Assembly (NCBI GenBank): GCA_964016885.1
Contig: OZ024760.1
Location: forward strand, 30,752,001-30,816,000
Length of the DNA: 64,000 nucleotides
From: Eledone cirrhosa
Taxonomy: Eukaryota
Reading direction: 5' to 3'
Shown here: positions 3,001-32,868 of the stretch, piece by piece
Layout: each line of letters begins with the position of its first letter
Position numbering within the stretch: the first letter of the stretch is position 1
Made by a program: the position numbers and the translations under genes
The notes under the pieces: model-generated
What the model was told of the DNA's origin: nothing
The model's database searches: none
What the model saw: the letters and a program-made list of their open reading frames with translations, nothing else

Positions 3001-4894
3001 ATGTAATGTAATGTAATGTGTAATGTGTAATGTGTAATGTGTAATGTAATGTAATGTAATGTAATGTAATTTAATGTAATGTAATGTGTAATGTAATGTA
3101 ATGTAATGTAATGTAATGTAATGTAATGTAATGTGTAATGTAACGTAATGTAATGTAATGTAATGTGTAATGTAATGTAATGTAATGTAATGTAAGGTAA
3201 TGTAATGTGTAATGTAATGTAATATAATGTAATGTAATGTGTAATGCAATGTAATGTAATGTAATGTAATGTAATGTAATGTGTAATCTAATGTAATGTA
3301 ATGTGTGATGTAACGTAATGTAATGTGTAATGTCATGTAATGTAATGTAATGTAATGTAATGTGTAATGTAGTGTAATGTAATGTAATGTGTAATGTAAG
3401 GTAACGTAATGTAATGTAATGTAATGTAATGTGTAATGTAATGTAATGTAATGTAATGTGTAATGTAATGTAATGTAATATAATGTAATGTAATGTGTAA
3501 TGTAATGTAATGTAATGTAAAGTAATGTAATGTAATGTGTAATGTAATGTAATGTGTAATGTAATATAATGTAATGTAATGTAATGTGTAATTTAATGTA
3601 ATGTAATGTAATGTAAAGTGTAATGTAATGTAATGTAATGTAACGTAATGTAATGTAATGTAATGTGTAATGTAATGTAATGTAATGTAATGTAATGTAA
3701 TGTAATGTATAATGTAATATAATGTAATGTAATGTAATGTAATGTAACGTAATGTAACGTAATGTAATGTAATGTAATGTAACGTAATGTAATGTAATGT
3801 GTAATGTGTAATGTAATGTAATGTAATGTAATGTAATGTAATGTAATGTGTAATGTATATTGTAATGTAATGTAATGTAATATAATGTAATATAATGTAA
3901 TGTGTAATGTAATGTAATGTAATGAAATGTAATGTAAAGTGTAATGTAATGTAACGTAATGTAATGTGTAATGTAATGTAATGTAATGTAATGTAATGTA
4001 ATATAATGTGTAATGTAATGTAATGTAAAGTGTAACGTAATGTAATGTAATGTAATGTAATGTAATGTAATGTAATGTGTAATGTAATGTAATGTAACGT
4101 AATGTGTAATCTAATGTAATGTAATGTAATGTAATATAAAGTAATGTAATGTGCAATGTAATGTAATGTAATGTAATGTAATGTAATGTGTAATGTAAAG
4201 TAATGTAATGTGTAATGTCATGTAATGTAATGTAACGTGTAATGTAAGGTAACGTAATGTAATGTAATGTAACGTAATGTGTAATGTAATGTAATGTAAT
4301 GTAATGTAACGTGTAATTTAATGTAATGTAATGTAATGTAATGTAATGTGTAATGTAACGTAATGTATTGTAATGTAATGTAATGTAATGTAATGTAATG
4401 TAATGTAATGTACTGTGTAATGTAATGTAATGTAATGTAATGTAATGTAATGTAATGTGTAATGTAATGTAATGTAATGTAATGTAATGTGTAATGTAAT
4501 GTAATGTAATGTAATGTGTAACATAATGTAATGTAATGTAATGTAATGTGTAATGTAATGTAATGTAATGTAATGTAATGTAATGCGTAACATAATGTAA
4601 TGTAATGTAATGTAACGTGTAATATAATACAACGTAATGTAATGTAATGTAATGTAATATGTAATGTAATATAATATGATATTATATAATATAATATAAT
4701 ATAATATACTATGTAATGTAATGTAATGTAATGTAATGTAATGTAAAGTAATGTAACGTAATGTTTAATGTAATGTAATGTGTAATGTAATGTAATTGTT
4801 TCTACTTTAGGCACAAGGCCAGCAATTACCCAGTCCATTACTGGTACTTTATTTTATCGACCCCGTAAGGATGAAAGGCAAAGTCAACCTCGGC

Positions 4895-4907
4895 GGGATT
4901 TGAACTC
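4895..4907 (-). promoter_or_regulatory. Pol III B box (all 9 copies; mutated in copy 7)
   Basis: GAGTTCAAATCCC matches GTTCRANNCC, about 51 nt downstream of the A box. Confidence 0.85.
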
Positions 4908-4958
4908 AGATCGTAAAGGGACGTAACTATGCTGGAAAGCATGGCGTCTGACCCTCTA

Positions 4959-4970
4959 CCGATACTGCCA
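4959..4970 (-). promoter_or_regulatory. Pol III type-2 internal promoter A box (present in the 8 full-length copies)
   Basis: TGGCAGTATCGG starts about 10 nt from the element 5' end and fits the TRGCNNARYNNG-type consensus loosely. Confidence 0.75.
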
Positions 4971-5872
4971 ATCCACAGCCAATGTGTAATGTAATGTAAT
5001 TTAATGTAATGTGTAATGTAATGTAATGTGTAATGTAATGTAATGTACTGTGTAATGTCATGTAATGTAATATGATGTGTAATCTAATGTAATGTAATGT
5101 AATGCAATGTAATGTAACGTGTAATGTAACGTAATGTAATGTAATGTAATGTAATGTAATGTAATGTAATGTCTAATGTAATGTAATGTAATGTAATGTA
5201 ATGTGTAATGTAATGTAATGTAATGTAATGTAATGTGTAATGTAATGTGTAATGTAATGTAATGTAATGTAATGTAATGTGTAATGTAATGTGTAATGTA
5301 ATGTAATGTATAATGTAATGTAATGTAATGTGTAACGTAATGTAATGTAATGTAATGTGTAATGTGTAATGTGTAATGTAATGTAATGTAATGTAATGTA
5401 ATTTAATGTAATGTAATGTGTAATGTAATGTAATGTAATGTAATGTAATGTAATGTAATGTAATGTAATTTAATGTGTAATGTAACGTAATGTAATGTAA
5501 TGTAATGTGTAATGTAATGTAATGTAAGGTAATGTAATGTGTAATGTAATGTAATATAATGTAATGTAATGTGTAATGCAATGTAATGCAATGTAATGTA
5601 ATGTAATGTAATGTAATGTAATGTGTAATGTAATGTAATGTAATGTAATGTGTGATGTAACGTAATGTAATGTGTAATGTCATGTAATGTAATGTAATGT
5701 AATGTAATGTGCAATGTAGTGTAATGTAATGTAATGTGTAATGTAAGGTAACGTAATGTAATGTAATGTAATGTAATGTGTAATGTAATGTAATGTAATG
5801 TAATGTGTAATGTAATGTAATGTAATATAATGTAATGTAATGTGTAATGTAATGTAATGTAATGTAAAGTAA

Positions 5873-6057
5873 TTGTTTCTACTTTAGGCACAAGGCCAGC
5901 AATTACCCAGTGCATTACTGGTACTTTATTTTATCGACCCTGTAAGGATGAAAGGCAAAGTAAACCTCGGCGGGATTTGAACTCAGATCATAAAGGGACG
6001 TAACTATGCTGGAAAGCATGGCGTCCGACCCTCTACCGATACTGCCAATCCACCGCC
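5873..6057 (-). mobile_element. SINE copy 2 (type A, full length) with 17-bp TSD and 8 extra 5' bases
   Basis: Same body as copy 1. ATGTAATGTAAAGTAAT occurs at 5857-5873 and 6066-6082. Non-satellite TCTGGTGT lies at 6058-6065. Confidence 0.9.
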
Positions 6058-7392
6058 TCTGGTGTATGTAATGTAAAGTAATGTAATGTAATGTGTAATG
6101 TAATGTAATGTGTAATGTAACGTAATGTAATGTAATGTAATGTGTAATCTCATGTAATGTAATGTAATGTGTAATGTAATGTAATGTAACGTAATGTGTA
6201 ATGTAAGGTAACGTAATGTAATGTAATGTAATGTGTAATGTAATGTAATGTAATGTAATGTAATGTAATGTGTAATTTAATGTAATGTAATGTAATGTAA
6301 AGTGTAATGTAATGTAATGTAATGTAACGTAATGTAATGTAATGTAATGTGTAATGTAATGTAATGTAATGTAATGTAATGTAATGTATAATGTAATATA
6401 ATGTAATGTAATGTAATGTAATGTAACGTAATGTAACGTAATGTAATGTAATGTAATGTAATGTGTAATGTGTAATGTAATGTAATGTAATGTAATGTAA
6501 TGTAATGTGTAATGTGTAATGTAATGTAATGTAATGTAATATAATGTAATATAATGTAATGTGTAATGTAATGTAATGTAATGAAATGTAATGTAAAGTG
6601 TAATGTAATGTAACGTAATGTAATGTGTAATGTAATGTAATGTAATGTAATGTAATGTAATATAATGTGTAATGTAATGTAATGTAAAGTGTAACGTAAT
6701 GTAATGTAATGTAATGTAATGTAATGTAATGTGTAATGTAATGTAATGTAACGTAATGTTTAATCTAATGTAATGTAATGTAATGTAATATAAAGTAATG
6801 TAATGTGCAATGTAATGTAATGTAATGTAATGTAATGTGTAATGTAATGTAATGTAATGTAATGTGTAATGTCATGTAATGTAATGTAACGTGTAATGTA
6901 AGGTAACGTAATGTAATGTAATGTAACGTAATGTGTAATGTAATGTAATGTAATGTAATGTAACGTGTAATTTAATGTAATGTAATGTAATGTAATGTGT
7001 AATGTAACGTAATGTATTGTAATGTAATGTAATTTAATGTAATGTAATGTAATGTAATGTGTAATGTAATGTAATGTAATGTAATGTAATGTGTAATGTA
7101 ATGTAATGTAATGTAATGTGTAACATAATGTAATGTAATGTAATGTAATGTGTAATGTAATGTAATGTAATGTAATGTAATGTAATGCGTAACGTAATGT
7201 AATGTAATGTAATGTAATGTGTAATATAATACAACGTAATGTAATGTAATGTAATGTAATATGTAATGTAATATAATATGATATTATATAATATAATATA
7301 ATATAATATACTATGTAATGTAATGTAATGTAATGTAATGTAATGTAATGTAACGTAATGTTTAATGTAATGTAATGTGTAATGTAATGTAA

Positions 7393-7577
7393 TTGTTTCT
7401 ACTTTAGGCACAAGGCCAGCAATTACCCAGTGCATTACTGGTACTTTATTTTATCGACCCCGTTAGGATGAAAGGCAAAGTCAACCTCGGCGGGATTTGA
7501 ACTCAAATCGTAAACGGACGTAACTATGCTGGAAAGCATGGCGTCTGACCCTCTACCGATACTGCCAATCCACAGCC
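7393..7577 (-). mobile_element. SINE copy 3 (segmental duplicate of copy 1)
   Basis: Shares diagnostic bases (GTCTGACC, CACAGCC) and both flanks with copy 1. It differs by a few substitutions. Confidence 0.9.
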
Positions 7578-7899
7578 AATGTGTAATGTAATGTAATTTA
7601 ATGTAATGTGTAATGTAATGTAATGTGTAATGTAATGTAATGTAATGTAATGTAATGTAATGTAATGTAATGTAATCTGTAATGTAATGTAATGTGTAAT
7701 GTAATGTAATGTAATGTAATGTAATGTAATATACCGTAATGTAATGTGTAATGTAATGTAATGTATAATGTAATGTAATGTAATGTAATGTAATGTAATG
7801 TAATGTAATGTAATGTGTAACGTAATGTAATGTAATGTAATGTAATGTAATGTAATGTGTAATGTGTAATGTAATGTAATGTAATGTAATGTAATGTAA

Positions 7900-10500
7900 T
7901 GTGTAATGTAATGTAATGTAATGTAATGTAATGTAATGTAATGTAATGTAGTGTGTAATGTAAGGTAATGTAATGTAATGTAATGTAATGTAATGTAATG
8001 TGTAATGTAATGTAATGTAATGTATAATGTAATGTAATGTAATGTGTAATGTCATGTAATGTAATGTAATGTAATGTAATGTAATGTAATGTAAGGTAAT
8101 GTAATGTATAATGTAAGGTAACGTAATGTAATGTAACGTAATGTAACGTGTAATGTAATGTAATGTAATGTAATGTAATGTGTAATGTAATGTAATGTAA
8201 TGTAATGTAATGTAATGTATGGTAATGTAATGTGTAATGTAATGTAATGTAATGTAATGTAATGTAATGTGTAATGTAATGTAATGTAACGTAATGTAAT
8301 GTAAAGTAATGTGTAATGTAATTTAATGTAATGTAATGTAATGTCTAATGTAATGTAATGTAATGTAATGTGTAATGTAATGTAATGTAATGTAATGTGT
8401 AATGTAATGTAATGTAATGTAATGTAATGTAATGTAATGTAATGTGTAATGTAATGTGTAATGTAATGTAAAGTAACGTAATGTAATGGAAAGTGTAACG
8501 TAATGTAACGTAATGTAATGTAATGTAATGTAATGTGTAATGTAATGTAATGTATAATGTAATATAATGTAATGTAATGTAATGTAATGTAACGTAATGT
8601 AATGTAACGTGTAACGTAATGTAATGTAATGTAATGTAATGTAATGTAATGTGTAATGTGTAATGTGTAATGTAATGTAATATAACGTAATATAATGTAA
8701 TATAATGTAATGTAATGTGTAATGTAATGTAATGTAACGTAATGTAATGTAACGTAATGTAATGTGTAATGTAATGTAATGTAATGAAATGTAATGTAAT
8801 GTGTAATGTAATGTAACGTAATGTAATGTGTAATGTAATGTAATGTAATGTAATGTAATGTAATATAATGTGTAATGTAATGTAATGTAATGTAATGTAA
8901 TGTAAAGGGTAACGTAATGTAATGTTATGTAATTTAATGTAATATGTAACGTAATGTAATGTAACGTAATGTGTAATGTAATCTAATGTAATGTAATGTA
9001 ATATAAAGTAATGTAATGTGTAATGTAATGTAATGTAATGTAATGTGTAATGTAATGTAATGTAATGTAATGTAATGTGTAATGTCATGTAATGTAATGT
9101 AACGTGTAATGTAATGTAATGTAATGTGTAATGTAAGGTAACGTAATGTAATGTAATGTAACGTAATGTGTAATGTAATGTAATGTAATGTAATGTAATG
9201 TAATGTAATGTAATGTAATGTGTAATGTAAGGTAATGTAATGTAATGTAATGTAATGTAATGTAATGTGTAATGTAATGTAATGTAATGTATAATGTAAT
9301 GTAATGTAATGTGTAATGTCATGTAATGTAATGTAATGTAATGTAATGTAATGTAATGTAAGGTAATGTAATGTATAATGTAAGGTAACGTAATGTAATG
9401 TAACGTAATGCAACGTGTAATGTAATGTAATGTAATGTAATGTAATGTGTAATGTAATGTAATGTAATGTAATGTAATGTAATGTATGGTAATGTAATGT
9501 GTAATGTAATGTAATGTAATGTAATGTAATGTAATGTGTAATGTAATGTAATGTAACGTAATGTAATGTAAAGTAATGTGTAATGTAATTTAATGTAATG
9601 TAAAGTAATGTGTAATGTAATTTAATGTAATGTAATGTAATGTCTAATGTAATGTAATGTAATGTAATGTGTAATGTAATGTAATGTAATGTAATGTGTA
9701 ATGTAATGTAATGTAATGTAATGTAATGTAATGTAATGTAATGTAATGTGTAATGTAATGTGTAATGTAATGTAAAGTAACGTAATGTAATGGAAAGTGT
9801 AACGTAATGTAACGTAATGTAATGTAATGTAATGTAATGTGTAATGTAATGTAATGTATAATGTAATATAATGTAATGTAATGTAATGTAATGTAACGTA
9901 ATGTAATGTAACGTGTAACGTAATGTAATGTAATGTAATGTAATGTAATGTAATGTAATGTGTAATGTGTAATGTGTAATGTAATGTAATGTAACGTAAT
10001 ATAATGTAATATAATGTAATGTAATGTGTAATGTAATGTAATGTAACGTAATGTAATGTAACGTAATGTAATGTGTAATGTAATGTAATGTAATGAAATG
10101 TAATGTAATGTGTAATGTAATGTAACGTAATGTAATGTGTAATGTAATGTAATGTAATGTAATGTAATGTAATATAATGTGTAATGTAATGTAATGTAAT
10201 GTAATGTAATGTAAAGTGTAACGTAATGTAATGTTATGTAATTTAATGTAATATGTAACGTAATGTAATGTAACGTAATGTGTAATGTAATGTAATGTAA
10301 TGTAATGTAATATAAAGTAATGTAATGTGTAATGTAATGTAATGTAATGTAATGTGTAATGTAATGTAATGTAATGTAATGTAATGTGTAATGTCATGTA
10401 ATGTAATGTAACGTGTAATGTAATGTAATGTAATGTGTAATGTAAGGTAACGTAATGTAATGTAATGTAACGTAATGTGTAATGTAATGTAATGTAATGT
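7900..10500. repeat. Tandem duplication, unit about 1.3 kb
   Basis: The rare marker TGGAAAGTGT occurs at about 8487 and 9791, with matching variant order. Confidence 0.75.
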
Positions 10501-13500
10501 GTAATGTAATGTAATTTAATGTAATGTAATGTAATGTAATGTAATGTAATGTAATGTAATGTAATGTAATGTAATGTGTAATGTAATGTAATGTAATATA
10601 ATATAATATAATATAATATAATATAACATAATATAATATAATATAATATGTAATGTAATGTAATGTTGTGTAATGTGTAATGTAATGTAATGTAATGTAA
10701 TGTAATGTATGTGTAATGTAATGTAATGTAATGTAATGTGTAATGTAATGTAATGTAATGTAATGTAATGTAATGTAATGTGTAATGTAATGAAATGTAA
10801 TGTGTAATGTAATGTAATGTAATGTAATGTAACGTGTAATGTAATGTAATGTAATGTAATGTAACGTGTAACGTAATGTAATGTAATGTAATGTGTAATA
10901 TAATATAACGTAATGTAATGTAATGTAATGTAATGTAATGTAATATGTAATGTAATATAATATAATATTATATAATATAATATAATATAGTATACTATGT
11001 AATGTAATGTAATGTAATGTAATGTAATGTAATGTAATGTGTAATATAATGTAATGTAATGTGTAATGTAATGTAATGTGTAATGTAATGTAATGTGTAA
11101 TGTAATGTAATGTAATGTAATGTAATGTAATGTAATCTGTAATGTAATGTAATGTATTGTTATGTGTAACGTAATGTAATGTAATGTAATGTATATGTAA
11201 TGTAATGTAATGTGTAATGTGTAATGTAATGTAATGTAATGTAATGTAATGTAATGTAATGTAATGTAATGTAAGGTGTAATGTAATGTAATGTAATTTA
11301 ATGTAGTGTAATGTAATGTAATGTAATGTGTAATGTAATGTAATGTAATGTAATGTAATGTATAATGTAATGTAATGTAATGTAATGTGTAATGTCATGT
11401 AATGTAATGTAATGTAATGTAATGTAATGTAATGTAATGTAATGTAATGTAATGTAATGTATAATGTAAGGTAACGTAATGTAATGTAACGTAATGTAAC
11501 GTGTAATGTAATGTAATGTAATGTAATGTAATGTAATGTGTAATGTAATGTAATGTAATGTAATGTAATGTAATGTAATGTGTAAGGTGAAATGTAATGT
11601 AATGTATTATAATGTAATGTGTAATGTAACGTAACATAATGTGTAATGTAATGTAATGTAATGTAATGTAATGTGTAATGTAATGTAATGTAATGTAATG
11701 TAATGTAATGTAATGCAATGTAATGTAATGTAATGTGTAATGTAATGTAACGTAATGTGTAATGTAATGTAACGTAATGTGTAATGTAATGTAATGTAAT
11801 GTAATGTATAATGTAATGTAATGTAATGTAATGTAATGTAATTTAATGTAATGTAATGTAATGTAATGTAATGTGTAAGGTGTAATGTAATGTAATGTAA
11901 TGTAATATAATGTAATGTGTAATGTAATGTAAGGTAATGTGTAATGTAATGTAATGTAATGTAATGTGTAATGTAATGTAATGTAATGTGTAATGTAATG
12001 TAATATAATGTAATATAATATAATATAACATCACATAATATGTAATGAAATGTAATGTAATGTAATGTAATGTAATGTAATGTAATGTGTAATGTCATGT
12101 AATGTAATATAATATAATGTAATGTAATATAATGTAATGTAATGTAATGTAATGTAATGTAATGTAATGTAATGTGTAATGTAGGGTAACGTAATGTAAT
12201 GTAATGTAATGTAATGTGTAATGTAATGTAATGTAATGTAATGTAATGTAATGTAATGTGTAATTTAATGTAATGTAATGTAATGTAACGTAATGTGTAA
12301 TGTAATGTAATGTGTAATGTAATGTAATATAATATAATATAATATAATATAATATAATATAACATCACATAATATGTAATGTAATGTAATGTAATGTAAT
12401 GTAATGTAATGTAATGTAATGTAATGTGTAATGTCATGTAATGTAATGTAATGTAATATAATGTAATTTAATGTAATGTAATGTAATGTAATGTGTAATG
12501 TAATGTAATGTAATGTAATGTAATGTGTAATGTAATGTGTAATGTAATGTAATGTAATGTAATGTAACGTAATGTAATGTAATGTGTAATGCAATGTAAT
12601 GTAATGTAATGTAATGTAATGTGTAATGTAATGTAATGTAATGTAATCTAATGTAATGTAATGTAATGTAAAGTGTAATGTAATGTAATGTAATGTGTAA
12701 TGTAATGTAATGTAACGTGTAATGTAATGTAATGTAATGTGTAATGTCATGTAATGTAATGTAATGTGTAATGTAATGTAATGTAATGTAATGTAATGCA
12801 ATGTAATGTAATGTGTAATGTAATGTAATGTAATATAATCTAATGTAATGTAATGTATTGTAATGTAACGTGTAATGTAATGTAATGTAATGTAATGTAA
12901 TGTAATGTAATGTGTAATGTAATGTAATGTAATGTAATGTAATGTAATGTGTAATGTAATGTAATGTAATGTAATGTAATGTAATGTACTATAATGTAAT
13001 GTGTAATGTAATGTAATGTAATGTAATGTAATGTAATGTGTAATGTAATGTAATGTGTAATGTAATGTAATGTACTGTGTAATGTCATGTAATGTAACAT
13101 GATGTGTAATCTAATGTAATGTAATGTAATGTAATGTAATGTAACGTGTAATGTAATGTAATGTAATGTAATGCAATGTAATGTAATGTAATGTAATGTA
13201 ATGTAATGTAATGTAATGTCTAATGTAATGTAATGTAATGTAATGTAATGTGTAATGTAATGTAATGTAATGTAATGTAATGTGTAATGTAATGTGTAAT
13301 GTAATGTAATGTAATGTAATGTGTAATGTAATGTGTAATGTAATGTAATGTAATGTAATGTAATGTGTAATGTAATGTGTAATGTAATGTAATGTATAAT
13401 GTAATGTAATGTAATGTAATGTAATGTGTAACGTAATGTAATGTAATGTAATGTAATGTAATGTAATGTGTAATGTGTAATGTGTAATGTAATGTAATGT

Positions 13501-16500
13501 AATGTAATTTAACGTAATGTAATGTGTAATGTAATGTAATGTAATGTAATGTAATGTAATGTAATGTAATGTAATGTAATGTGTAATGTAACGTAATGTA
13601 ATGTAATGTAATGTAACGTGTAATGTAATGTAAGGTAATGTAATGTAATGTGTAATGTAATGTAATGTAATATAATGTAATGTAATGTGTAATGCAATGT
13701 AATGTAATGTAATGTAATGTAATGTAATGTAATGTAATGTGTAATGTAATGTAATGTAATGAAATGTAATGTGTGATGTAACGTAATGTAATGTGTAATG
13801 TCATGTAATGTAATGTAATGTAATGTAATGTAATGTGTAATGTAATGTAATGTAACGTAATGTGTAATGTAAGGTAACGTAATGTAATGTAATGTAATGT
13901 AATGTAATGTAATGTGTAATGTAATGTAATGTAATGTGTAATGTAATGTAATGTAATATAATGTAATGTAATGTAATGTAATGTGTAATGTAATGTAATG
14001 TAATGTAATGTAATGTAATGTGTAATGTAATGTAATGTAATGTAATGTAATGTGTAATGTAACGTAATGTAATGTAATGTAATGTGTAATCTCATGTAAT
14101 GTAATGTAATGTGTAATGTAATGTAATGTAACGTAATGTGTAATGTAAGGTAATGTAATGTAATGTAATGTAATGTGTAATGTAATGTAATGTAATGTAC
14201 TGTAATGTAATGTGTAATTTAATGTAATGTCATGTAATGTAATGTAATGTAAAGTGTAATGTAATGTAATGTAATGTAATGTAGTGTAATGTAATGTAAT
14301 GTAATGTAATTTAATGTAATGTAACGTAATGTAATGTAATGTAATGTAATGTGTAACGTAATGTAATGTAATGTAATGTAATGTAATGTAATGTAATGTC
14401 TAACGTAATGTAATGTAATGTAATGTAATGTAATGTGTAATGTAACGTAATGTAATGTAATGTAATGTAATGTGTAATGTAATGTGTAATGTAACGTAAT
14501 GTAATGTAATGTAATGTGTAACGTAATGTGTAATGTAATGTAATGTAAAGTAATGTAATGTAATGTAACGTAATGTATGGTAATGTAATGTAATGTAATG
14601 TAATGAGTAATGTAATGTACTGTAATGTAATGTAATGTGTAATGTAATGTAATGTAATGTAATGTAATGTAATGTGTAATGTAATGTGTAATGTGTAATG
14701 TAATGTAATGTAATGTAATGTAATGTAATGTAATGTGTAACGTAATGTAATGTAATGTAATGTAATGTAATGTGTAATGTAATGTAATGTAATGTGTAAT
14801 GTAATGTAAGGTAATGTAATGTAATGTAATGTGTAATGTAATGTAATGTAATGTAATGTAATGTAATGTAATGTGTAATGTAATGTAATGTAATGTAATG
14901 TATAATGTAATGTAATGTAATGTGTAATGTAATGTAATGTAATGTAATGTAATGTAATGTAATGTAATGTAATGTAATGTAATGTATAATGTAAGGTAAC
15001 GTAATGTAATGTAATGTGTAATGTAATGTAATGTAATGTGTAATGTAAAGTAATGTAATGTAATGTAATGTAATGTGTAATGTAATGTAATGTAATGTAA
15101 TGTAATGTTATGTAATGTAATGTAATGTGTAAGGTGTAATGTAATGTAATGTAATGTAATGTAATGTGTAATGTAATGTAATGTAATGTAACGTAATGTA
15201 ATGTTATGTAATGTGTAATGTAAGGTAATGTAACGTAATGCAATGTAATATAATGTGTAATGTAATGTAATGTAATGTAATGTGTAATGTAAGGTAATGT
15301 AATGTAATGTAATGTAATGTAATGTAATGTGTAATGTAATGTAATGTAATGTGTAATGTAATGTAATGCAATGTAATGTAATGTGTAATGTAATGTAATG
15401 TAATGTCATGTGTAATGTAATGTAACGTAATGTAATGTAACGTAATGTGTAATGTAATATAATGTAATGTAATGTAATGTAATGTAATGTAATGTAATGT
15501 AATGTAATGTGTAATGTAATGTAATGCAATGTTTAATGTAATGTAACGTAATGTAATGTAATGTGTAATGTAATGTTTAATGTAATGTAATGTAATGTAA
15601 TGTAATGTAATGTAATGTAATGTAATGTAATGTAATGTAATGTAATGTAATATAATGTAATGTAATGTAATATGTAATGTAATGTAATGTAATGTTTAAT
15701 GTAATGTAACGTAATGTAATGTAATGTGTAATGTAATGTTTAATGTAATGTAATGTAATGTAATATGTAATGTAATGTAATGTAATGTAATGTAATGTAA
15801 TGTAACGTAATGTAATGTAATGTAATATAATGTAATGTAATGTAATATGTAATGTAATGTAATGTAATGTAATGTAATGTAATGTAACGTAATGTAATGT
15901 AATGTAATTTAATGTAATGTAATGTAACGTAATGTGTAATGTAATGTGATGTAATCTGTAATGTAATGTAACGTAATGTAATGTGTAATGTAATGTAATG
16001 TAATGTGTAATGTAATGTAATGTAATATAATGTAATGTAATATAATGTAGTGTAATGTAATGTAATGTAATGTTATGTAATGTAATGTGTAATGTAATGT
16101 AATATAATGTAATTTAATGTAAGGTAATGTAATGTAATGTAATGTGTTACGTAATGTAATGTAATTTACTGTAATGTAATGTAATGTAATGCAATGTAAT
16201 GTAATGTAATGTCTAATGTAATGTAATGTAATGTGTAATGTAATGTAATGTAATGTAATGTAATGTAATGTAATGTAATGTAATGTAATGTAATGTGTAA
16301 TGTAATGTAATGTGTAATGTAATGTAATGTAATGTGTAATGTAATGTAGTGTAATGTAATGTAATGTAATATAATGTAATGTAATGTGTAATGAAATGTG
16401 TAATGTAATGTAATGTAATATAATCTAATGTAATGTGTAATGTAATGTAATGTAATATAATGTAAAGTGTAATGTAATGTAATGTAATGTAATGTAATGT

Positions 16501-19253: not shown

Positions 19254-19438
19254 TTGTTTCTACTTTAGGCACAATGCCAGCAATTACTCAGTGCATTACT
19301 GGTACTTTATTTTATCGACCCCGTAAGGATGAAAGGCAAAGTCAACCTCGGCGGGATTTGAACTCAGATCGTAAAGGGACGTAACTATGCTGGAAAGCAT
19401 GACGTCCGACCTTCTACCGATACTGCCAATCCACCACC
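19254..19438 (-). mobile_element. SINE copy 5 (duplicate of copy 4)
   Basis: Identical by eye to copy 4, including flanks, 2566 bp downstream. Confidence 0.9.
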
Positions 19439-19680
19439 CTAATGTAATGCGTAATGTAATGTGTAATGTAATGTAATGTGTAATGTAATGTAATGTAATG
19501 CAATGTAATGTAATGTAATGTGTAATGTAATGTAATGTAATGTGTAATGTAATGTGTAATGTAATGTAATGTAATGTAATATAATGTAATGTGTAATGTA
19601 ATGTAATGTAATCTAATGTAATGTAATGTAAAGTAATGTGTAATGTAATGTAATGTAATGTAATGTCTAATATAATGTAA

Positions 19681-19868
19681 TTGTTTCTACTTTAGGCACA
19701 AGGCCAGCAATTACCCAGTGCATTACTGGTACTTTATTTTATCGACCCCGTAGGGATGAATGGCAAAGTTAAACTTGGCGGGATTTGAACTCAGAATGGC
19801 AAGGGCCGTAACTCTATGCGTCATAAGCGTGGCGTCCGACCCTATACCGATACTGCCAATCCACCGCC
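19681..19868 (-). mobile_element. SINE copy 6 (type B, 188 bp)
   Basis: The 3' half matches type A but the segment between the A and B boxes differs (AGAATGGCAAGGGCCGTAACTCTATGCGTCATAAGCGTGG). 20-bp TSD with one mismatch at 19662-19681 and 19872-19891. Confidence 0.9.
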
Positions 19869-22404
19869 CCCAATGTATAATATAATGTAATGTAATGTAA
19901 TGTAATGTAATGTGTAATGTAGTGGGTAATGTAATGTAATGTAATGTAATGTAATGTGTAATGTAATGTGTAATGTGATGTAATGTAATGTAATGTAATG
20001 TAATGTAATGTAATGTAATGTAATGTAATGTAATGTAATGTAATGTGTAATGTAATGTAATGTAATGTAATGTGTAATGCAATGTAATGTAATGTAATGT
20101 AATGTAACGTAATATAATGTAATGTAATGTGTAATGTAATGTAATGTAATGTAATGTAATGTAATGTAATGTAATGTAATGTGTAATGTAATGTAATGTA
20201 ATGTAATGTAATGTAATGTAATGTGTAATGTAATGTAATGTGATGTGTAATTTCATGTAATGTAATGTAATGTGTAATGTAATGTAATGTAATGTAATGT
20301 AATGTAATGTAATGTAATGTAATGTAATATGTAATGCATAATGTAATGTAATGTAATGTAATGTAATGTAATGTGTAATGTAATGTGTAATGTAATGTAA
20401 TGTAATATAATGTAATGTGTAATGTAATGTAATGCAATGTAATGTAATGTAATGTGTAATGTAATGTAATGTGTAATGTAATGTAATGTACTGTGTAATG
20501 TTATGTAATGTAATATGATGTGTAATGTAATGTATTGTAATGTTATGTAATGTAATGTAACGTGTAATGTAACGTAATGTAATGTAATGTAATGTAATGT
20601 GTAATGTTATGTAATGTAATGTAATGTAATGTAATGTAATGTCTAATGTAATGTAATGTATTGTAATGTAATGTGTAATGTAATGTAATGTAATGTAATG
20701 TAATGCAATGTAATGTAATGTAATGTAATGTAATGTAATGTAATGTAATGTAATGTAATGTGTAATGTAATGTGTAATGTAATGTAATGTAATGTAATGT
20801 AATGTAATGTAATGTAATGTAATGTGTAATGTAAGATGTAATGTAATGTAATGTAATGTAATGTAATGTGTAATGTAATGTAATGTAATGTAATGCAATG
20901 TAATGTAATATGTAATGTAATGTAATGTAATGTAATGTGTAATGTAAGGTAATGTAATGTAATGTAATGTAATGTAATGTAATGTGTAATGTAATGTAAT
21001 GTAATGTAATGTGTAATGTAATGTAATGTAATGTAATGTAATGTGTAATGTAATGTAATGTAATGTCATGTGTAATGTAATGTAACGTAATGTAATGTAA
21101 CGTAATGTGTAATGTAATATAATGTAATGTAATGTAATGTAATGTAATGTAATGTAATGTGTAATGTAATGTAATGCAATGTTTAATGTAATGTAACGTA
21201 ATGTAATGTAATGTGTAATGTAATGTTTAATGTAATGTAATGTAATGTAATATGTAATGTAATGTAATGTAATGTAATGTAATGTAATGTAATGTAATGT
21301 AATGTAATGTAATATAATGTAATGTAATGTAATGTAATGTAATATGTAATGTAATGTAATGTAATGCAATGTTTAATGTAATGTAATGTAATGTAATGTG
21401 TAATGTAATGTTTAATGTAATGTAATGTAATGTAATATGTAATGTAATGTAATGTAATGTAATGTAATGTAATGTAACGTAATGTAATGTAATGTAATAT
21501 AATGTAATGTAATGTAATATGTAATGTAATGTAATGTAATGTAATGTAATGTAATGTAACGTAATGTAATGTAATGTAATTTAATGTAATGTAATGTAAC
21601 GTAATGTGTAATGTAATGTGATGTAATCTGTAACGTAATGTAACGTAATGTAATGTGTAATGTAATGTAATGTAATGTGTAATGTAATGTAATGTAATAT
21701 AATGTAATGTAATATAATGTAGTGTAATGTAATGTAATGTAATGTTATGTAATGTAATGTGTAATGTAATGTAATATAATGTAATTTAATGTAAGGTAAT
21801 GTAATGTAATATAATGTGTTACGTAATGTAATGTAATGTACTGTAATGTAATGTAATGTAATGCAATGTAATGTAATGTAATGTCTAATGTAATGTAATG
21901 TAATGTGTAATGTAATGTAATGTAATGTAATGTAATGTAATGTAATGTAATGTAATGTAATGTATTGTAATGTAATGTAATGTGTAATGTAATGTAATGT
22001 GTAATGTAATGTGATGTAATGTAATGTAATGTAATGTGTAATGTAATGTAGTGTAATGTAATGTAATGTAATGTAATGTAATGTAATGTGTAATGAAATG
22101 TGTAATGTAATGTAATGTAATGTAATATAATCTAATGTAATGTGTAATGTAATGTAATGTAATATAATGTAAAGTGTAATGTAATGTAATGTAATGTAAT
22201 GTAATGTGTAATGTAACGTAATGTAATGTAATGTACTGTGTAATGTCATGTAATGCAACATAATGTGTAATGTAATGTAATGTAATGTAATGTAATGTAA
22301 TGTAATGTAATGTAACGTAATGTAATGTAATGTAATGTGTAATGTAATGTGTAATGTAATATAATGTAATGTAAAGTAATGTAACGTAACGTAATGTAAT
22401 ATAA

Positions 22405-22589
22405 TTGTTTCTACTTTAGGCACAAGGCCAGCAATTACCCAGTGCATTACTGGTACTTTATTTTATCGACCCCGTAAGGATGAAAGGCAAAGTCAACCTC
22501 GGCGTGATTTGAACTCAGATCGTAAAGGGACGTAACTATGCTGGAAAGCATGACGTCCGACCCTCTACCGATACTGCCAATCCACCACC
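22405..22589 (-). mobile_element. SINE copy 7 (same insertion lineage as copies 4 and 5)
   Basis: Same left flank (AACGTAACGTAATGTAATATAAT) and the CATGACG/CCACCACC diagnostics. B box substitution: GTGATTTGAAC on +. Confidence 0.9.
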
Positions 22590-22851
22590 CTAATGTAATG
22601 TGTAATGTAATGTGTAATGTAATGTAATGTAATGTAATGTGTAATGTAATGTAATGTAATGCAATGTAATGTAATGTAATGTGTAATGTAATGTAATGTA
22701 ATGTGTAATGTAATGTGTAATGTAATGTAATGTAATGTAATATAATGTAATGTAATGTAATGTGTAATGTAATGTAATGTAATCTAATGTAATGTAATGT
22801 AAAGTAATGTGTAATGTAATGTAATGTAATGTAATGTCTAATATAATGTAA

Positions 22852-23039
22852 TTGTTTCTACTTTAGGCACAAGGCCAGCAATTACCCAGTGCATTACTGG
22901 TACTTTATTTTATCGACCCCGTAGGGATGAAAGGCAAAGTTAAACTCGGCGGGATTTGAACTCAGAATGGCAAGGGCCGTAACTCTATGCGTCATAAGCG
23001 TGGCGTCCGACCCTATACCGATACTGCCAATCCACCGCC
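22852..23039 (-). mobile_element. SINE copy 8 (type B, duplicate of copy 6) with perfect 20-bp TSD
   Basis: AATGTCTAATATAATGTAAT occurs at 22833-22852 and 23043-23062. Confidence 0.9.
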
Positions 23040-23639
23040 CCCAATGTCTAATATAATGTAATGTAATGTAATGTGTAATGTAATGTAATGTAATGTAATG
23101 TAATGTGTAATGTAATGGGTAATGTAATGTAATGTAATGTAATGTAATGTGTAATGTAATGTGTAATGTGATGTAATGTAATGTAATGTAATGTAATGTA
23201 ATGTAATGTAATGTAATGTGTAATGTAATGTAATGTAATGTAATGTGTAATGCAATGTAATGTAATGTAATGTAATGTAACGTAATATAATGTAATGTAA
23301 TGTGTAATGTAATGTAATGTAATGTAATGTGTAATGTAATGTAATGTAATGTAATGTAATGTGTAATGTAATGTAATGTAATGTAATGTAATGTAATGTA
23401 ATGTAATGTGTAATGTAATGTAATGTGATGTGTAATTTCATGTAATGTAATGTAATGTGTAATGTAATGTAATGTAATGTAATGTAATGTAATGTAATAT
23501 GTAATGCATAATGTAATGTAATGTGTAATGTAATGTGTAATGTAATGTAATGTAATATAATGTAATGTGTAATGTAATGTAATGCAATGTAATGTAATGT
23601 AATGTGTAATGTAATGTAATGTGTAATGTAATGTAATGT

Positions 23640-26600
23640 ACTGTGTAATGTTATGTAATGTAATATGATGTGTAATGTAATGTAATGTAATGTAATGTAA
23701 TGTAATGTAACGTGTAATGTAACGTAATGTAATGTAATGTAATGTGTAATGTAATGTAATGTAATGTAATGTAATGTAATGTAATGTAATGTCTAATGTA
23801 ATGTAATGTATTGTAATGTAATGTGTAATGTAATGTAATGTAATGTAATGTAATGTGTAATGTAATGTAATGTAATGTAATGTAATGTAATGTAATGTAA
23901 TGTAATGTAATGTGTAATGTAATGTGTAATGTAATGTAATGTAACGTAATGTAACGTAATGTGTAATGTAATGTAATTTAATGTAATCTAATGTGTAATG
24001 TAATGTAATGTGTAATGTAATGTAATGTATAATGTAATGTAATGAATAATGTAATGTAATGTAATGTAATGTAATGTAATGTAATGTAATGTAATTTAAT
24101 GTTATGTGTAATGTAATGTAATGTAATGTAATGTGTAATGTAATGTAATGTAATGTAATGTGTAATGAAATGTAATGTAATGTAATGTAATGTAATGTAA
24201 TGTGTAATGTAATGTAATGTAATGTAATGTATAATGTAATGTAATGTAATGTAATGTGTAATGTCATGTAATGTAATGTAATGTAATGTAATGTAATGTA
24301 ATGTAATGTATAATGTAAGGTAACGTAATGTAATGTAACGTAATGTAACGTGTAATGTAATGTAATGTAATGTAATGTAATGTAATGTGTAATGTAATGT
24401 AATGTAATGTAATGTAATGTAATGTAATGTAATGTAATGTAATGTGTAAGGTAAAATGTAATGTAATGTAATGTAATGTAATATAATGTAATGTGTAATG
24501 TAATGTAACGTAATGTGTAATGTAATGTAATGTAATGTAATGTGTAATGTAATATAATGTAATGTAATGTAATGTAATGCAATGTAATGTAATGTAATGT
24601 GTAATGTAATGTAACATAATGTGTAATGTAATGTAATGTAATGTGTAATGTAATGTAATGTAATGTAATGTATAATGTAATGTAATGTAATGTGTAATGT
24701 AATGTAATGTAAGGTAATGTAATGTAATGTAATGTAATGTAATGTGTAAGGTGTAATGTAATGTAATGTAATATAATGTAATGTGTAATGTAATGTAACG
24801 TTATGTGTAATGTAATGTAATGTAATGTAATGTAATGTAATGTAATGTGTAATGTAATGTAATGTAATGTGTAATGTAATGTAATATAATATAATATAAT
24901 ATAATATAATATAACATCACATAATATGTAATGAAATGTAATGTAATGTAATATAATGTAAAGTAATGTAATGTAATGTAATGTAATGTAATGTAATGTA
25001 ATGTAATGTAATGTAATGTGTAATGTAAGGTAACATAATGTAATGTAATGTAATGTAATGTGTAATGTAATGTAATGTAATGTAATGTAATGTGTAATTT
25101 AATGTAATGTAATGTAATGTAACGTAATGTGTAATGTAATGTAATGTAATGTGTAATGTAATGTAATATAATATAATATAATATAATATAATATAACATC
25201 ACATAATATGTAATGAAATGTAATGTAATGTAATATAATGTAAAGTAATGTAATGTAATGTAATTTAATGTAATGTAATGTAATGTAATGTAATGTAATG
25301 TGTAATGTAAGGTAACATAATGTAATGTAATGTAATGTAATGTAATGTAATGTAATGTAATGTGTAATGTAATGTAATGTGATGTGTAATTTCATGTAAT
25401 GTAATGTAATGTGTAATGTAATGTAATGTAATGTAATGTAATGTAATGTAATGTAATGTAATGTAATGTAATCTAATGTAATATGTAATGCATAATGTAA
25501 TGTAATGTAATGTAACGTAATATAATGTAATGTAATGTAATGTAATGTAATGTAATGTAATGTAATGTAATGTAATGTAATGTAATGTAATGTGTAATGT
25601 AATGTAATGTAATGTAATGTAATGTAATGTAATGTGTAACGTAATGTAATGTGATGTGTAATTTCATGTAATGTAACGTAATGTAATGTAATGTAATGTA
25701 ATGTAACGTGTAATGTAACGTAATGTAATGTAATGTAATGTAATGTAATGTGTAATGTAATGTGTAATGTAATGTAATGTAATATAATGTAATGTGTAAT
25801 GTAATGTAATGCAATGTAATGTAATGTAATGTGTAATGTAATGTAATGTGTAATGTAATGTAATGTACTGTGTAATGTCATGTAATGTAATATGATGTGT
25901 AATGTAATGTAATGTAATGTAATGTAATGTAATGTAATGTAATGTAACGTGTAATGTAACGTAATGTAATGTAATGTAATGTAATGTGTAATGTAATGTA
26001 ATGTAATGTAATGTAATGTAATGTCTAATGTAATGTAATGTATTGTAATGTAATGTGTAATGTAATGTAATGTAATGTAATGTAATGTGTAATGTAATGT
26101 AATGTAATGTAATGTAATGTAATGTAATGTAATGTAATGTGTAATGTAATGTGTAATGTAATGTAATGTAACGTAATGTAACGTAATGTGTAATGTAATG
26201 TAATTTAATGTAATCTAATGTGTAATGTAATGTAATGTGTAATGTAATGTAATGTATAATGTAATGTAATGTATAATGTAATGTAATGTAATGTAATGTA
26301 ATGTAATGTAATGTAATGTAATTTAATGTTATGTGTAATGTAATGTAATGTAATGTAATGTGTAATGTAATGTAATGTAATGTAATGTGTAATGAAATGT
26401 AATGTAATGTAATGTAATGTAATGTAATGTAATGTGTAATGTAATGTAATGTAATGTAATGTATAATGTAATGTAACGTAATGTAATGTGTAATGTCATG
26501 TAATGTAATGTAATATAATGTAATGTAATGTAATGTAAGGTAATGTAATGTAATGTAATGTATAATGTAAGGTAACGTAATGTAATGTAACGTAATGTAA

Positions 26601-29600
26601 CGTGTAATGTAATGTAATGTAATGTAATGTAATGTAATGTTTAATGTAATGTAATGTAATGTAATGTAATGTAATGTAATGTAATGTAATGTAATGTAAT
26701 GTAATGTAATGTAATGTAATGTGTAAGGTAAAATGTAATGTAATGTAATGTAATGTAATATAATGTAATGTGTAATGTAATGTAACGTAATGTGTAATGT
26801 AATGTAATGTAATGTAATGTGTAATGTAATATAATGTAATGTAATGTAATGTAATGCAATGTAATGTAATGTAATGTGTAATGTAATGTAACATAATGTG
26901 TAATGTAATGTAATGTAATGTGTAATGTAATGTAATGTAATGTAATGTATAATGTAATGTAATGTAATGTGTAATGTAATGTAATGTAAGGTAATGTAAT
27001 GTAATGTAATGTAATGTAATGTGTAAGGTGTAATGTAATGTAATGTAATATAATGTAATGTGTAATGTAATGTAACGTTATGTGTAATGTAATGTAATGT
27101 AATGTAATGTAATGTAATGTAATGTGTAATGTAATGTAATGTAATGTGTAATGTAATGTAATATAATATAATATAATATAATATAATATAACATCACATA
27201 ATATGTAATGAAATGTAATGTAATGTAATATAATGTAAAGTAATGTAATGTAATGTAATGTAATGTAATGTAATGTAATGTAATGTAATGTAATGTGTAA
27301 TGTAAGGTAACATAATGTAATGTAATGTAATGTAATGTGTAATGTAATGTAATGTAATGTAATGTAATGTGTAATTTAATGTAATGTAATGTAATGTAAC
27401 GTAATGTGTAATGTAATGTAATGTAATGTGTAATGTAATGTAATATAATATAATATAATATAATATAATATAATATAACATCACATAATATGTAATGAAA
27501 TGTAATGTAATGTAATATAATGTAAAGTAATGTAATGTAATGTAATTTAATGTAATGTAATGTAATGTAATGTAATGTAATGTGTAATGTAAGGTAACAT
27601 AATGTAATGTAATGTAATGTAATGTAATGTAATGTAATGTAATGTGTAATGTAATGTAATGTGATGTGTAATTTCATGTAATGTAATGTAATGTGTAATG
27701 TAATGTAATGTAATGTAATGTAATGTAATGTAATGTAATGTAATGTAATGTAATCTAATGTAATATGTAATGCATAATGTAATGTAATGTAATGTAACGT
27801 AATATAATGTAATGTAATGTAATGTAATGTAATGTAATGTAATGTAATGTAATGTAATGTAATGTAATGTAATGTGTAATGTAATGTAATGTAATGTAAT
27901 GTAATGTAATGTAATGTGTAACGTAATGTAATGTGATGTGTAATTTCATGTAATGTAACGTAATGTAATGTAATGTAATGTAATGTAACGTGTAATGTAA
28001 CGTAATGTAATGTAATGTAATGTAATGTAATGTGTAATGTAATGTGTAATGTAATGTAATGTAATATAATGTAATGTGTAATGTAATGTAATGCAATGTA
28101 ATGTAATGTAATGTGTAATGTAATGTAATGTGTAATGTAATGTAATGTACTGTGTAATGTCATGTAATGTAATATGATGTGTAATGTAATGTAATGTAAT
28201 GTAATGTAATGTAATGTAATGTAATGTAACGTGTAATGTAACGTAATGTAATGTAATGTAATGTAATGTGTAATGTAATGTAATGTAATGTAATGTAATG
28301 TAATGTCTAATGTAATGTAATGTATTGTAATGTAATGTGTAATGTAATGTAATGTAATGTAATGTAATGTGTAATGTAATGTAATGTAATGTAATGTAAT
28401 GTAATGTAATGTAATGTAATGTAATGTAATGTAATGTAATGTAATGTAATGTGTAATGTAATGTGTAATGTAATGTAATGTAACGTAATGTAACGTAATG
28501 TGTAATGTAATGTAATTTAATGTAATCTAATGTGTAATGTAATGTAATGTGTAATGTAATGTAATGTATAATGTAATGTAATGTATAATGTAATGTAATG
28601 TAATGTAATGTAATGTAATGTAATGTAATGTAATTTAATGTTATGTGTAATGTAATGTAATGTAATGTAATGTGTAATGTAATGTAATGTAATGTAATGT
28701 GTAATGAAATGTAATGTAATGTAATGTAATGTAATGTAATGTAATGTGTAATGTAATGTAATGTAATGTAATGTATAATGTAATGTAATGTAATGTAATG
28801 TGTAATGTCATGTAATGTAATGTAATATAATGTAATGTAATGTAATGTAAGGTAATGTAATGTAATGTAATGTATAATGTAAGGTAACGTAATGTAATGT
28901 AACGTAATGTAACGTGTAATGTAATGTAATGTAATGTAATGTAATGTAATGTTTAATGTAATGTAATGTAATGTAATGTAATGTAATGTAATGTAATGTA
29001 ATGTGTAAGGTAAAATGTAATGTAATGTAATGTAATGTAATATAATGTAATGTGTAATGTAACGTAACGTAATGTGTAATGTAATGTAATGTGTAATGTA
29101 ATATAATGTAATGTAATGTAATGTAATGCAATGTAATGTAATGTAATGTGTAATGTAATGTAACATAATGTGTAATGTAATGTAACGTAATGTGTAATGC
29201 AATGTAATGTAATGTAATGTATAATGTAATGTAATGTAATGTGTAATGTAATGTAATGTAATGTAATGTAATGTAATGTAATGTAATGTAATGTGTAAGG
29301 TGTAATGTAATGTAATGTAATATAATGTAATGTGTAATGTAATGTAACGTTATGTGTAATGTAATGTAATGTAATGTAATGTAATGTGTAATGTAATGTA
29401 ATGTAATGTGTAATGTAATGTAATATAATATAATATAATATAATATAATATATCATCATATAATATGTAATGAAATGTAATGTAATGTAATATAATGTAA
29501 AGTAATGTAATGTAATGTAATTTAATGTAATGTAATGTAATGTAATGTAATGTGTAATGTAAGGTAACATAATGTAATGTAATGTAATGTAATGTGTAAT

Positions 29601-29750
29601 GTAATGTAATGTAATGTAATGTAATGTGTAATTTAATGTAACGTAATGTAATGTAACGTAATGTGTAATGTAATGTGTAATGTAATGTAATATAATATAA
29701 TATAATATAATATAATATAACATCACATAATATGTAATGTAATGTAATGC
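23640..29750. repeat. About 2.7 tandem copies of a 2.28 kb unit
   Basis: The rare marker AAGGTAAAATG occurs at about 24450, 26727 and 29008. Equivalent pseudo-ORF ends fall at 24582/26859/29131 and 25881/28163. Confidence 0.8.
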
Positions 29751-31587
29751 AATGTAATGTAATGTAATGTGTAATGTAATGTAATGTAATGTAATGTAAT
29801 GTAAAGTAATGTGTAATGTAATGTAATGTAATGTAACCTAATGTAATGTAATGTAATGTAATGTGTAATGTAATGTAATGTAGTGTGTAATGTAATGTAA
29901 TGTAATGTGTAATGTAATGTAATGTAATGTGTAATGTCATGTAATGTAATGTAATGTGTAATGTAATGTAATGTAATGTAATGTGTAATGTAAGGTAATG
30001 TAATGTAATGCAATGTAATGTAATGTGAAATGTAATGTAATGTAATGTAATCTAATGTAATGTAATGTATTGTAATGTAATGTAATGTAATGTAATGTAA
30101 TGTAATGTAATGTGTAATGTAATGTAATGTAATGTAATGTAATGTAATGTAATGTAATGTTACGTAATGTAATGTAATGTGTAATGTAATGTAATGTAAT
30201 GTAATGTGTAATGTAATGTAATGTAATGTAATGTAATGTAATGTGTAATGTCATGTAATGTAATGTAATGTGTAATGTAATGTAATGTAATGTAATGTAA
30301 TGTGTAATGTAAGGTAACGTAATGTAATGTAATGTAATGTAATGTAATGTAATGTAATGTAATGTAATGTAATGTAATGTAATGTAATGTATGGTAATGT
30401 AGTGTAATGTAATGTGTAATGTAATGTAATGTAATGTAATGTAATGTAATGTCTAATGTAATGTCTAATGTAATGTAGTGTAACGTAATGTAATGTAATG
30501 TAATGTGTAATGTAATGTAATGTAATGTCTAATGTAATGTAATGTAATGTAATGTGTAATGTAATGTAATGTAATGTAATGTAATGTGTAATGTAATGAG
30601 TAATGTAATGTAATGTAACGTAATGTAGTGTAATGTAATGTAATGTAATGTAATGTAATGTAATGTAATGTAATGTAATGTAATGTGTAACGTAATGTGT
30701 AATGTAATGTAATGTAATGTAATGTAATGTAATGTGTAATGTAATGTGTAATGTAATGTAATGTAACGTAATGTAATGGAAAGTGTAACGTAATGTAATG
30801 TAATGTAATGTAATGTAATGTAATGTAATGTAATGTGTAATGTAATGTAATGTAATGAAATGTAATGTAATGTGTAATGTAATGTAACGTAATATAATGT
30901 GTAATGTAATGTAATGTAATGTAATGTAATGTAATATAATGTGTAATGTAATGTAATGTAATGTAATGTAATGTAAAGTGTAACGTAATGTAATGTAATG
31001 TAATGTAATGTAATGTAATGTGTAATGTAATGTAATGTAAAGTAATGTGTAATGTAATGTAATGTAATGTAATGTAATATAAAGTAATGTAATGTGTAAT
31101 GTAATGTAATGTAATGTAATGTAATGTAATGTGTAATGTAATGTAATGTAATGTAATGTGTAATGTAATGTAATGTAATGTAATGTAATGTAATGTGTAA
31201 TGTCATGTAATGTAATGTAAAGTGTAATGTAATGTAATGTAATGTAATGTGTAATGTAAGGTAATGTAATGTAATGTAATGTAACGTAATGTGTAATGTA
31301 ATGTAATGTAATGTAATGTAACATGTAATTTAATGTAATGTAACGTAATGTAATTTAATGTGTAATGTAATGTAATGTAATGTAATGTAATGTGTAATGT
31401 GTAATGTAATGTAATGTAATATAATGTAATGTAATGTAATGTAATGTGTAATGTAATGTAATGTAATGTAATGTGTAATGTGTAATGTAATGTATGGTAA
31501 TGTAATGTAATGTAATGTAATGTGTAATGTAATGTAATGTAATGTAATGTAATGTAATGTAATGTAAAGTAATGTATGGTAATGTAA

Positions 31588-31709
31588 TTGTTTCTACTTT
31601 AGGCACAAGGCCAGCAAATTACCCAGTGCATTACTGGTACTTTATTTTATCGACCCCGTAAGGATGAAAGGCAAAGTCAACCTCGGCGGGATTTGAACTC
31701 AGATCATAA
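31588..31709 (-). mobile_element. SINE copy 9, 5'-truncated (about 120 bp; B box present, A box absent) with 19-bp TSD
   Basis: The body stops at ...GAACTCAGATCATAA. TAATGTATGGTAATGTAAT occurs at 31570-31588 and 31707-31725. Confidence 0.88.
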
Positions 31710-32868
31710 TGTATGGTAATGTAATGTAATGTAATGTGTAATGTAACGTAATGTAATGTAATGTAATGTAATGTAATGTAATGTAATGTCTAATGTAATG
31801 TAATGTATTGTAATGTAATGTGTAATGTAATGTAATGTAATGTAATGTAATGTGTAATGTAATGTGTAATGTAATGTGTAATGTAATGTAATGTAACGTA
31901 ATGTAATGTAATGTGTAATGTAATGTAATTTAATGTAATGTAATGTGTAATGTAATGTAATGTGTAATGTAATGTAATGTATAATGTAATGTAATGTAAT
32001 GTAATGTAATGTAATGTAATGTAATGTAATTTAATGTAATGTGTAATGTAATGTAATGTGTAATGTAATGTAATGTAATGTAATGTGTAATGAAATGTAA
32101 TGTAATGTAATGTAATGTAATGTAATGTGTAATGTAATGTAATGTAATGTAATGTAATGTAATGTAATGTAATGTATAATGTAATGTAATGTAATGTAAT
32201 GTAATGTGTAATGTCATGTAATGTAAGGTAATGTAATGTAATGTAATGTAATGTAATGTAATGTAATGTAATGTAATGTAATGTAATGTAATGTAATGTA
32301 ATGTAATGTAATGTAATGTAATGTATAATGTAAGGTAACCTAATGTAATGTAACGTAATGTAACGTGTAATGTAATGTAATGTAATGTAATGTAACGTGT
32401 AATGTAATGTAATGTAATGTAATGTAATGTAATGTGTAATGTAATGTAATGTAATGTAATGTAATGTAATGTAATGTAATGTAATGTAATGTAATGTAAT
32501 GTAATGTAATGTGTAATGTAACGTAACGTAATGTGTAATGTAATGTAATGTAATGTGTAATGTAATATAATATAATGTAATGTAATGTAATGCAATGTAA
32601 TGTAATGCAATGTGTAATGTAATGTAACATAATGTGTAATGTAATGTAACGTAATGTGTAATGTAATGTAATGTAATGTAATGTATAATGTAATGTAATG
32701 TAATGTAATGTGTAATGTAATGTAATGTAATGTAATGTAATGTAACGTAATGTAATGTAATGTAATGTAATGTGTAAGGTGTAATGTAATGTAATGTAAT
32801 ATAATGTAATGTGTAATGTAATGTAACGTAATGTGTAATGTAATGTAATGTAATGTGTAATGTAATGT

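Follow-up and report, generated by a model that had tools for sequence, protein, structure and literature searches.

Why should every copy of a mobile element within a satellite array face the same way and join the repeat at the same letter? The question is raised by a stretch of 64,000 nucleotides from the octopod Eledone cirrhosa (G000:C21:30,752,001-30,816,000, in a genome of 3.0 Gb), referred to here as the window, which is from end to end (1..64000, plus strand) a single (AATGT)n satellite with variant units. A periodicity scan gives exactly nine non-satellite segments and nothing else that interrupts the repeat, and all nine are the same ~185-bp element, a short interspersed element (SINE), lying on the minus strand with the junction TAAT|TGTTTCTAC, where the bar marks the join. 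A preliminary description of this DNA had reported the nine minus-strand copies, their junction, a division into five groups and the lack of other foreign sequence, and these observations stand; it had also proposed that the SINE homes to the satellite, which does not. It is concluded here, with considerable confidence, that the SINE lands throughout the genome at the short motif Y|ATTA(T), that it probably owes its single orientation and register in the satellite to the presence of this motif on one strand only, and that a long interspersed element (LINE) of L1/Tx1-like type likely supplies the enzymes.

The copies in the window are as follows, with the lineage of the wider array to which each belongs and the direct repeat, or target-site duplication (TSD), at its ends.

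4797..4980, minus strand: SINE copy 1, lineage C (21 copies sampled), 20-bp repeat at 4777-4796 and 4981-5000.
5874..6065, minus strand: SINE copy 2, lineage G (3 copies), 17-bp TSD at 5857-5873 and 6066-6082.
7394..7577, minus strand: SINE copy 3, tandem duplicate of copy 1.
16689..16873, minus strand: SINE copy 4, lineage H (23 copies), at an ATTAT variant unit, with a degraded TSD of ~9 bp.
19255..19439, minus strand: SINE copy 5, duplicate of copy 4, left flank in common over 457 bp.
19682..19871, minus strand: SINE copy 6, lineage I, 20-bp TSD with one mismatch.
22406..22590, minus strand: SINE copy 7, lineage H duplicate.
22853..23042, minus strand: SINE copy 8, duplicate of copy 6, exact 20-bp TSD at 22833-22852 and 23043-23062.
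31589..31707, minus strand: SINE copy 9, 5'-truncated, 19-bp TSD at 31570-31588 and 31707-31725.

Common flanks and internal variants place these copies in the groups 1+3, 2, 4+5+7, 6+8 and 9. Four groups had been credited with direct repeats of 17-21 bp, and repeats of 20, 17, 20 and 19 bp are indeed found; that of copies 1 and 3 is uninformative alone, its string occurring 803 times in the window. The corresponding strings of copy 2, copies 6 and 8, and copy 9 occur 38, 3 and 25 times, respectively. For copies 4, 5 and 7 the repeat is 4 bp long when no mismatch is allowed and 9 bp when one is, and their sister copies elsewhere in the array show a repeat of ~9 bp beginning ATTATATTA. The view that the five groups are independent insertions is upheld, with the amendment that 1+3, 2 and 4+5+7 prove to be members of larger duplicated lineages in the sampled stretches of the array. 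Lineage I is a different subfamily, 89-90% identical to copy 2 (copy 6: 89%), and one lineage-G copy is 100% identical to a dispersed copy. The hallmarks of target-primed reverse transcription, the route proposed earlier, are also present, in the form of TSDs that start at the element end, both here and in dispersed copies, and of 5' truncation in copy 9.

Analysis of the whole genome was informative as to what these inserts are. They are copies of an ordinary, very abundant SINE, probably of the transfer RNA (tRNA) type, that is dispersed over the genome, with 70,988 exact matches to its 18-nt 3' end (35,414 on the plus strand and 35,574 on the minus strand), and it has the traits of its class in being short, non-coding, dispersed and present in high copy number on both strands. 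Its head contains TGGCAGTATCGG and GAGTTCAAATCC, which resemble the A box and the B box of Pol III promoters, respectively. Zero matches to the SINE were returned by an Rfam scan and by ARAGORN, and motif look-ups in papers and supplements on octopus and cephalopod SINEs gave no match to it. Seven of 172 matches to the tail lacked the SINE body, six of them being truncated or diverged SINEs and one chance-like. Head-to-tail tandems of the SINE, each copy inside the duplicated target of an earlier one, were seen at several loci (L004, L008, L015, L022, L029 and L105).

The exact 3' ends are followed by ATTA in 62,317 cases, by ATTAT in 57,533 and by ATTAC in 994, the last amounting to at most 1.4%. 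The element had been thought to end in ...CAATTAC; these genome-wide counts assign the terminal C to the satellite. To define the target more closely we used a survey of 275 non-array loci (1.42 Mb), made up of evenly spaced samples and search matches and hence non-random, in which 123 copies of at least 90% identity had both ends visible. A flanking repeat of at least 8 bp accompanies 84 of these and none by this criterion the other 39. In 71 of the 84 the repeat starts at the exact element end, lengths being 8-23 bp, and among the 71 the duplication begins with ATTA in 68 and with ATTAT in 64. Leaving aside eight that are nested in another SINE's end, the base preceding ATTA is C or T in every case (63/63; C 34, T 29). 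As the 5' copy of the repeat also starts with ATTA, the motif was present in the target before insertion, and the target rule of the SINE is Y|ATTA(T). A copy at C1:282.22 Mb lies, with the same polarity, within a small TATTA/CATTA microsatellite. A generic search for other inserts flanked by repeats that start with ATTA gave SINEs and background only.

In the satellite this motif recurs each five bases on one strand. The array that holds the window is ~1.3 Mb long (G000:C21 ~29.66-30.96 Mb) and has a single orientation; perfect 8-unit satellite runs number 14,300 on the plus strand of the genome and 55 on the minus strand, nearly all within this array. YATTA sites occur at 161 per kb on the minus strand of the array and 0.26 per kb on its plus strand, against 6.7 per kb in random DNA (both strands), and ATTAT variant units make up 3.9% of the target sites in the array. 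It is likely because the motif is offered on one strand only that the SINE has a single orientation and register there. The uniformity reported earlier for the window extends to a 497-kb sample of the 1.3 Mb (one 3-kb locus of which was chosen by a match), in which 92/92 SINE matches are on the minus strand and 89/89 intact 3' ends join at ATTA (56 ATTAC, 33 ATTAT), and it is likely explained by the general motif.

The same uniformity could be read as a sign of specific targeting to the (AATGT)n satellite, whether by the SINE as a whole or by one of its subfamilies, the more so when SINE density is 185 per Mb in the array and 50-62 per Mb outside (counting, outside, copies of at least 89% identity having a 3' end) and when the window holds more founder insertions than a flat density would give. 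We regard this as very improbable. Three satellite units follow only 18 of the 70,988 ends, every one in the C21 array, and when the genome is searched with copy 2, three of the 30 best matches are in the array and 27 elsewhere, in unrelated flanks with a satellite density of at most 0.04 over 500 bp; a majority of copies in such surroundings had been set out beforehand as the pattern that would speak against homing. The satellite's own ATTAC is by a rough estimate ~26-fold worse as a site than ATTAT, and among the matches listed no end of the candidate LINE (described below) that is followed by ATTAC (n=211) falls inside the array. The excess of array copies, for its part, is due to tandem duplication. 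The (AATGT)n satellite is a second-rate site for the SINE and not its target.

By their junctions the array copies form 15 groups, of which five short ones (B, D, E2, F and F2) are possible deletion products, so that the sample contains 10-15 founder lineages and the remaining copies are tandem duplicates. A flat density predicts 11.8 founders in the 497 kb, and founders in the sampled array are therefore no denser than the genome average. Per-site insertion rates, obtained roughly by setting genome-wide counts over the site density in 360 kb of samples, are ~7e-3 at YATTAT and 2-3e-4 at YATTAC; for the window they predict 6.6-6.9 insertions on the minus strand and 0.06 on the plus strand, where 5 and 0 are seen. 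ATTAT units, despite their small share of sites, were used by 4 of the 10-15 founders (binomial p 0.0004-0.002), a preference that is as the general rule predicts. Two of these comparisons fit the general rule less well. A site-weighted model predicts 40-43 founders in the sample, far above the number counted, which means that the age or turnover of the array must matter, and the five founders of the window compare with 1.5 expected from flat density (Poisson ~0.02, by hand).

It might also be supposed that one or two insertions gave rise to all the array copies through duplication, deletion and mutation, orientation and register being simply inherited. Most of the 92 copies are after all duplicates, the truncated groups just named may derive by deletion, and chimeras exist. 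The groups differ, however, in where the 5' end lies, in the rare units that mark their TSDs and in subfamily (copies 6 and 8 against copy 2); distinct TSDs together with distinct subfamily variants are found in at least 10 groups, and 10 of the 11 lineages tested are most closely related to a dispersed copy rather than to another array lineage. An origin from so few events is accordingly given very little credence here, and several independent founders are preferred.

The array copies carry traces of later events as well. Chimeric SINE copies at G000:C21:30689843, 30693718, 30734609 and 30736566 (L034, L035, L039) pair the 5' flank of one lineage with the 3' flank of another, which suggests exchange between SINE copies inside the array. 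Copies of lineage C span ~0.94 Mb of it, from 29.82 to 30.76 Mb (L071, L031-L040 and window 4797-7577), and those of lineage A ~0.7 Mb, a spread that marks long-range duplication or exchange.

A candidate for the LINE that could mobilise the SINE was first met in the tails of Dong/R4-like elements and is ~6 kb long with two open reading frames (ORFs). Its ORF2 has Exo_endo_phos, RVT_1 and zf-RVT domains, with a weak zf-CCHC upstream; the best solved match is human L1 ORF2p (E 6.5e-55), the named homologues are headed by one of Argonauta hians (65%) and include 'Transposon TX1 149 kDa protein' at 32% identity. The genome contains 2,580 occurrences of one 22-nt version of the LINE end. The 3' end of the LINE reads GCC-CTTGT-GGC or AACC-CTTGT-GGTT, then ~11 nt, then (ATT)n, and that of the SINE GGC-CTTGT-GCC, then ~13 nt, then ATTAT. 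The common variants among 62 LINE and 170 SINE ends all keep a stem of 3-4 bp and the same loop, with compensatory changes in the second pair between LINE and SINE and in the third pair between LINE subfamilies. ATTAT follows 57 of 70 LINE ends, the LINE is located in (ATT)n tracts with fixed polarity, and the two elements are found inserted in one another's ends. On this comparison of sequences we favour the L1/Tx1-like LINE, on balance, as the probable partner of the SINE.

Several findings count against this assignment. The match between SINE and LINE is only ~30 nt long with its stem of 3-4 bp; the case for the hairpin is one of covariation only, because folding of the 3' and 5' parts of the SINE is no better than that of shuffles (z 0.06 and -0.21, respectively). 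ATTAT lies beside just 21 of 52 mapped LINE 5' junctions, many of them poorly mapped, and the LINE copies examined are 81-91% alike and thus older than SINE copies that are 98-100% alike. Slightly better than even, in our estimation, are the prospects of the fuller proposal that a dominant octopod SINE, of at least 70,000 copies, depends for its mobility on an undescribed L1/Tx1-like LINE with a preference for (ATT)n, by way of a covarying CUUGU hairpin. As a separate observation, tandem runs with a ~96-bp period at G000:C27 ~4.79-6.27 Mb carry the 3' end of this LINE and are apparently a minisatellite built from a LINE end.

The target rule may be right and the partner nevertheless another LINE, whether CR1-like, Dong/R4-like, RTE or of a family outside our sample, the survey of LINEs being non-exhaustive. 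In SINEs driven by RTE elements the TSD is known to begin in the register of the tail repeat (PMC6007223), and a young family in the genome, its copies ~99% alike, carries an (ATT)n tail whose polarity is that of the SINE. The latter is, to judge by its motifs, presumably of the CR1-like clade; it has no 3' sequence in common with the SINE, and no clear long TSD was found at 19 loci. The tail repeats of the two RTE-like families seen are TGAA or CTGAGT. In the Dong/R4-like family the tail is (AAT)n, of opposite polarity; this family shares no tail with the SINE, and has the SINE in antisense in 5 of 29 tails. A partner of this other kind seems to us unlikely, if considerably less so than homing to the satellite, and the L1/Tx1-like LINE is retained as the candidate. 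Other properties of these families may be recorded here. Many intact 945-aa frames are present in the CR1-like family (L169-L218). The Dong/R4-like family (L059, L249-L298), of which 20 long loci served purely as extra sequence, comprises 47,043 candidates situated in (AAT)n tracts, the longest frames reaching 1,141 aa, and its tails gather antisense SINE and L1/Tx1-like insertions.

If the L1/Tx1-like LINE is the partner, its endonuclease, of the apurinic/apyrimidinic (APE) type, would nick the strand 5'-ATAAT^R-3', and the freed TAAT-3' end would pair with the terminal AUUA(U) of the SINE RNA and so prime reverse transcription, ORF2 possibly recognising that RNA through the short CUUGU hairpin. 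A second nick 8-23 bp away would generate the duplication. Segments of the array have afterwards duplicated, taking the ~10-15 founders to 92 copies in 497 kb and giving chimeras. The preliminary description had invoked either the endonuclease of a sequence-specific partner LINE or pairing of the RNA end; orientation and register are directed by sequence as it supposed, probably through one of these or both, the satellite as the target being the part that is lost. Nick preference and primer pairing cannot be separated by sequence alone, although the invariant pyrimidine at -1, lying outside the paired stretch, favours some enzyme preference.

Comparison with known systems places the SINE among target-preferring SINEs, which are a known kind. 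SINEU of crocodilians is assigned to the Tx1-clade LINE Tx1-Mar by common target preference in the account of Kojima (2015, PMC4494074), and tandem insertions that sandwich a TSD occur in the present SINE as in SINEU/Tx1-Mar. The two differ in that SINEU has a head derived from small nuclear RNA (snRNA) and a single DNA transposon as its target, whereas the present SINE has a probably tRNA-like head, a 5-6 bp AT motif genome-wide as target and a copy number far above that of SINEU. Microsatellite-specific non-LTR (long terminal repeat) elements include Kibi in (TC)n, Koshi in (TTC)n, Dong in (TAA)n and Waldo in (ACAY)n (PMC3812793, PMC4494074), and repeat-specific retroelements are described as having over 20% of copies in the target repeat (PMC4494074). 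So large a share, as for elements of the Waldo, Dong, Kibi, Koshi, TRAS and SART types, is not seen for the SINE in (AATGT)n. The candidate LINE gathers in (ATT)n at fixed polarity much as the Tx1-clade Kibi and Koshi do in their repeats; the SINE, unlike Kibi, Koshi, Dong and Waldo, needs just Y|ATTA(T) and is mostly outside long repeats.

In the RTE-related Au-like and Sauria SINEs the TSD start matches the 3' repeat, for which nick selection or primer pairing is considered (Nishiyama and Ohshima 2018, PMC6007223), and PMC13295347 likewise connects the tail repeat of RTE SINEs with the start of the TSD. The present SINE is like them in this match. Its rule is much tighter, 4-5 bases being nearly invariant where theirs fixes one or two; its targets show no conspicuous T-stretch at -10, and the sampled RTEs do not have its tail. 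Octopus tRNA-derived SINEs OK, OR1 and OR2 and the tRNA-Core and tRNA-Deu classes are named in PMC4824008, PMC4758252 and PMC8967140, and octopus and cephalopod SINEs also in PMC5786205; like OK, OR1 and OR2, the present element is an abundant SINE, probably of tRNA type, in an octopod genome. Octopus genomes are described as SINE-rich, with L1-Tx1, CR1, RTE and Dong-R4 families (PMC13282606, PMC8967140). A literature search whose scope left out most subscription papers, Repbase, Dfam and SINEBase gave nothing on the target rule of this SINE, its partner or the satellite, and this SINE-LINE pair was not found in the literature searched.

The locus is thus no case of satellite homing, its pattern following from a general target rule and duplication of the array. 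The Y|ATTAT rule and the candidate LINE offer a likely route for the spread of a major repeat of the octopod genome, and rule and partner together could explain why the SINE accumulates in (ATT)n tracts and in the tails of other elements. If the SINE is truly LINE-driven in this way, Y|ATTAT would be among the tightest short target rules for an abundant SINE, and there would be an explanation for the clusters of nested SINEs and LINEs that octopod genomes have in their AT microsatellites. The founder insertions, moreover, are natural markers of the history of the 1.3-Mb array, recording duplications or exchanges over up to ~0.9 Mb.

Two minor observations concern the array itself. A single insert of ~70 bp, different from the SINE, lies at L142:6494-6603, and presumably resembles the end of another short repeat family. 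At the left edge of the array (L129:9500-10000) (AATAT)n passes gradually into (AATGT)n, a gradation which suggests that the satellite has grown out of an AATAT microsatellite.

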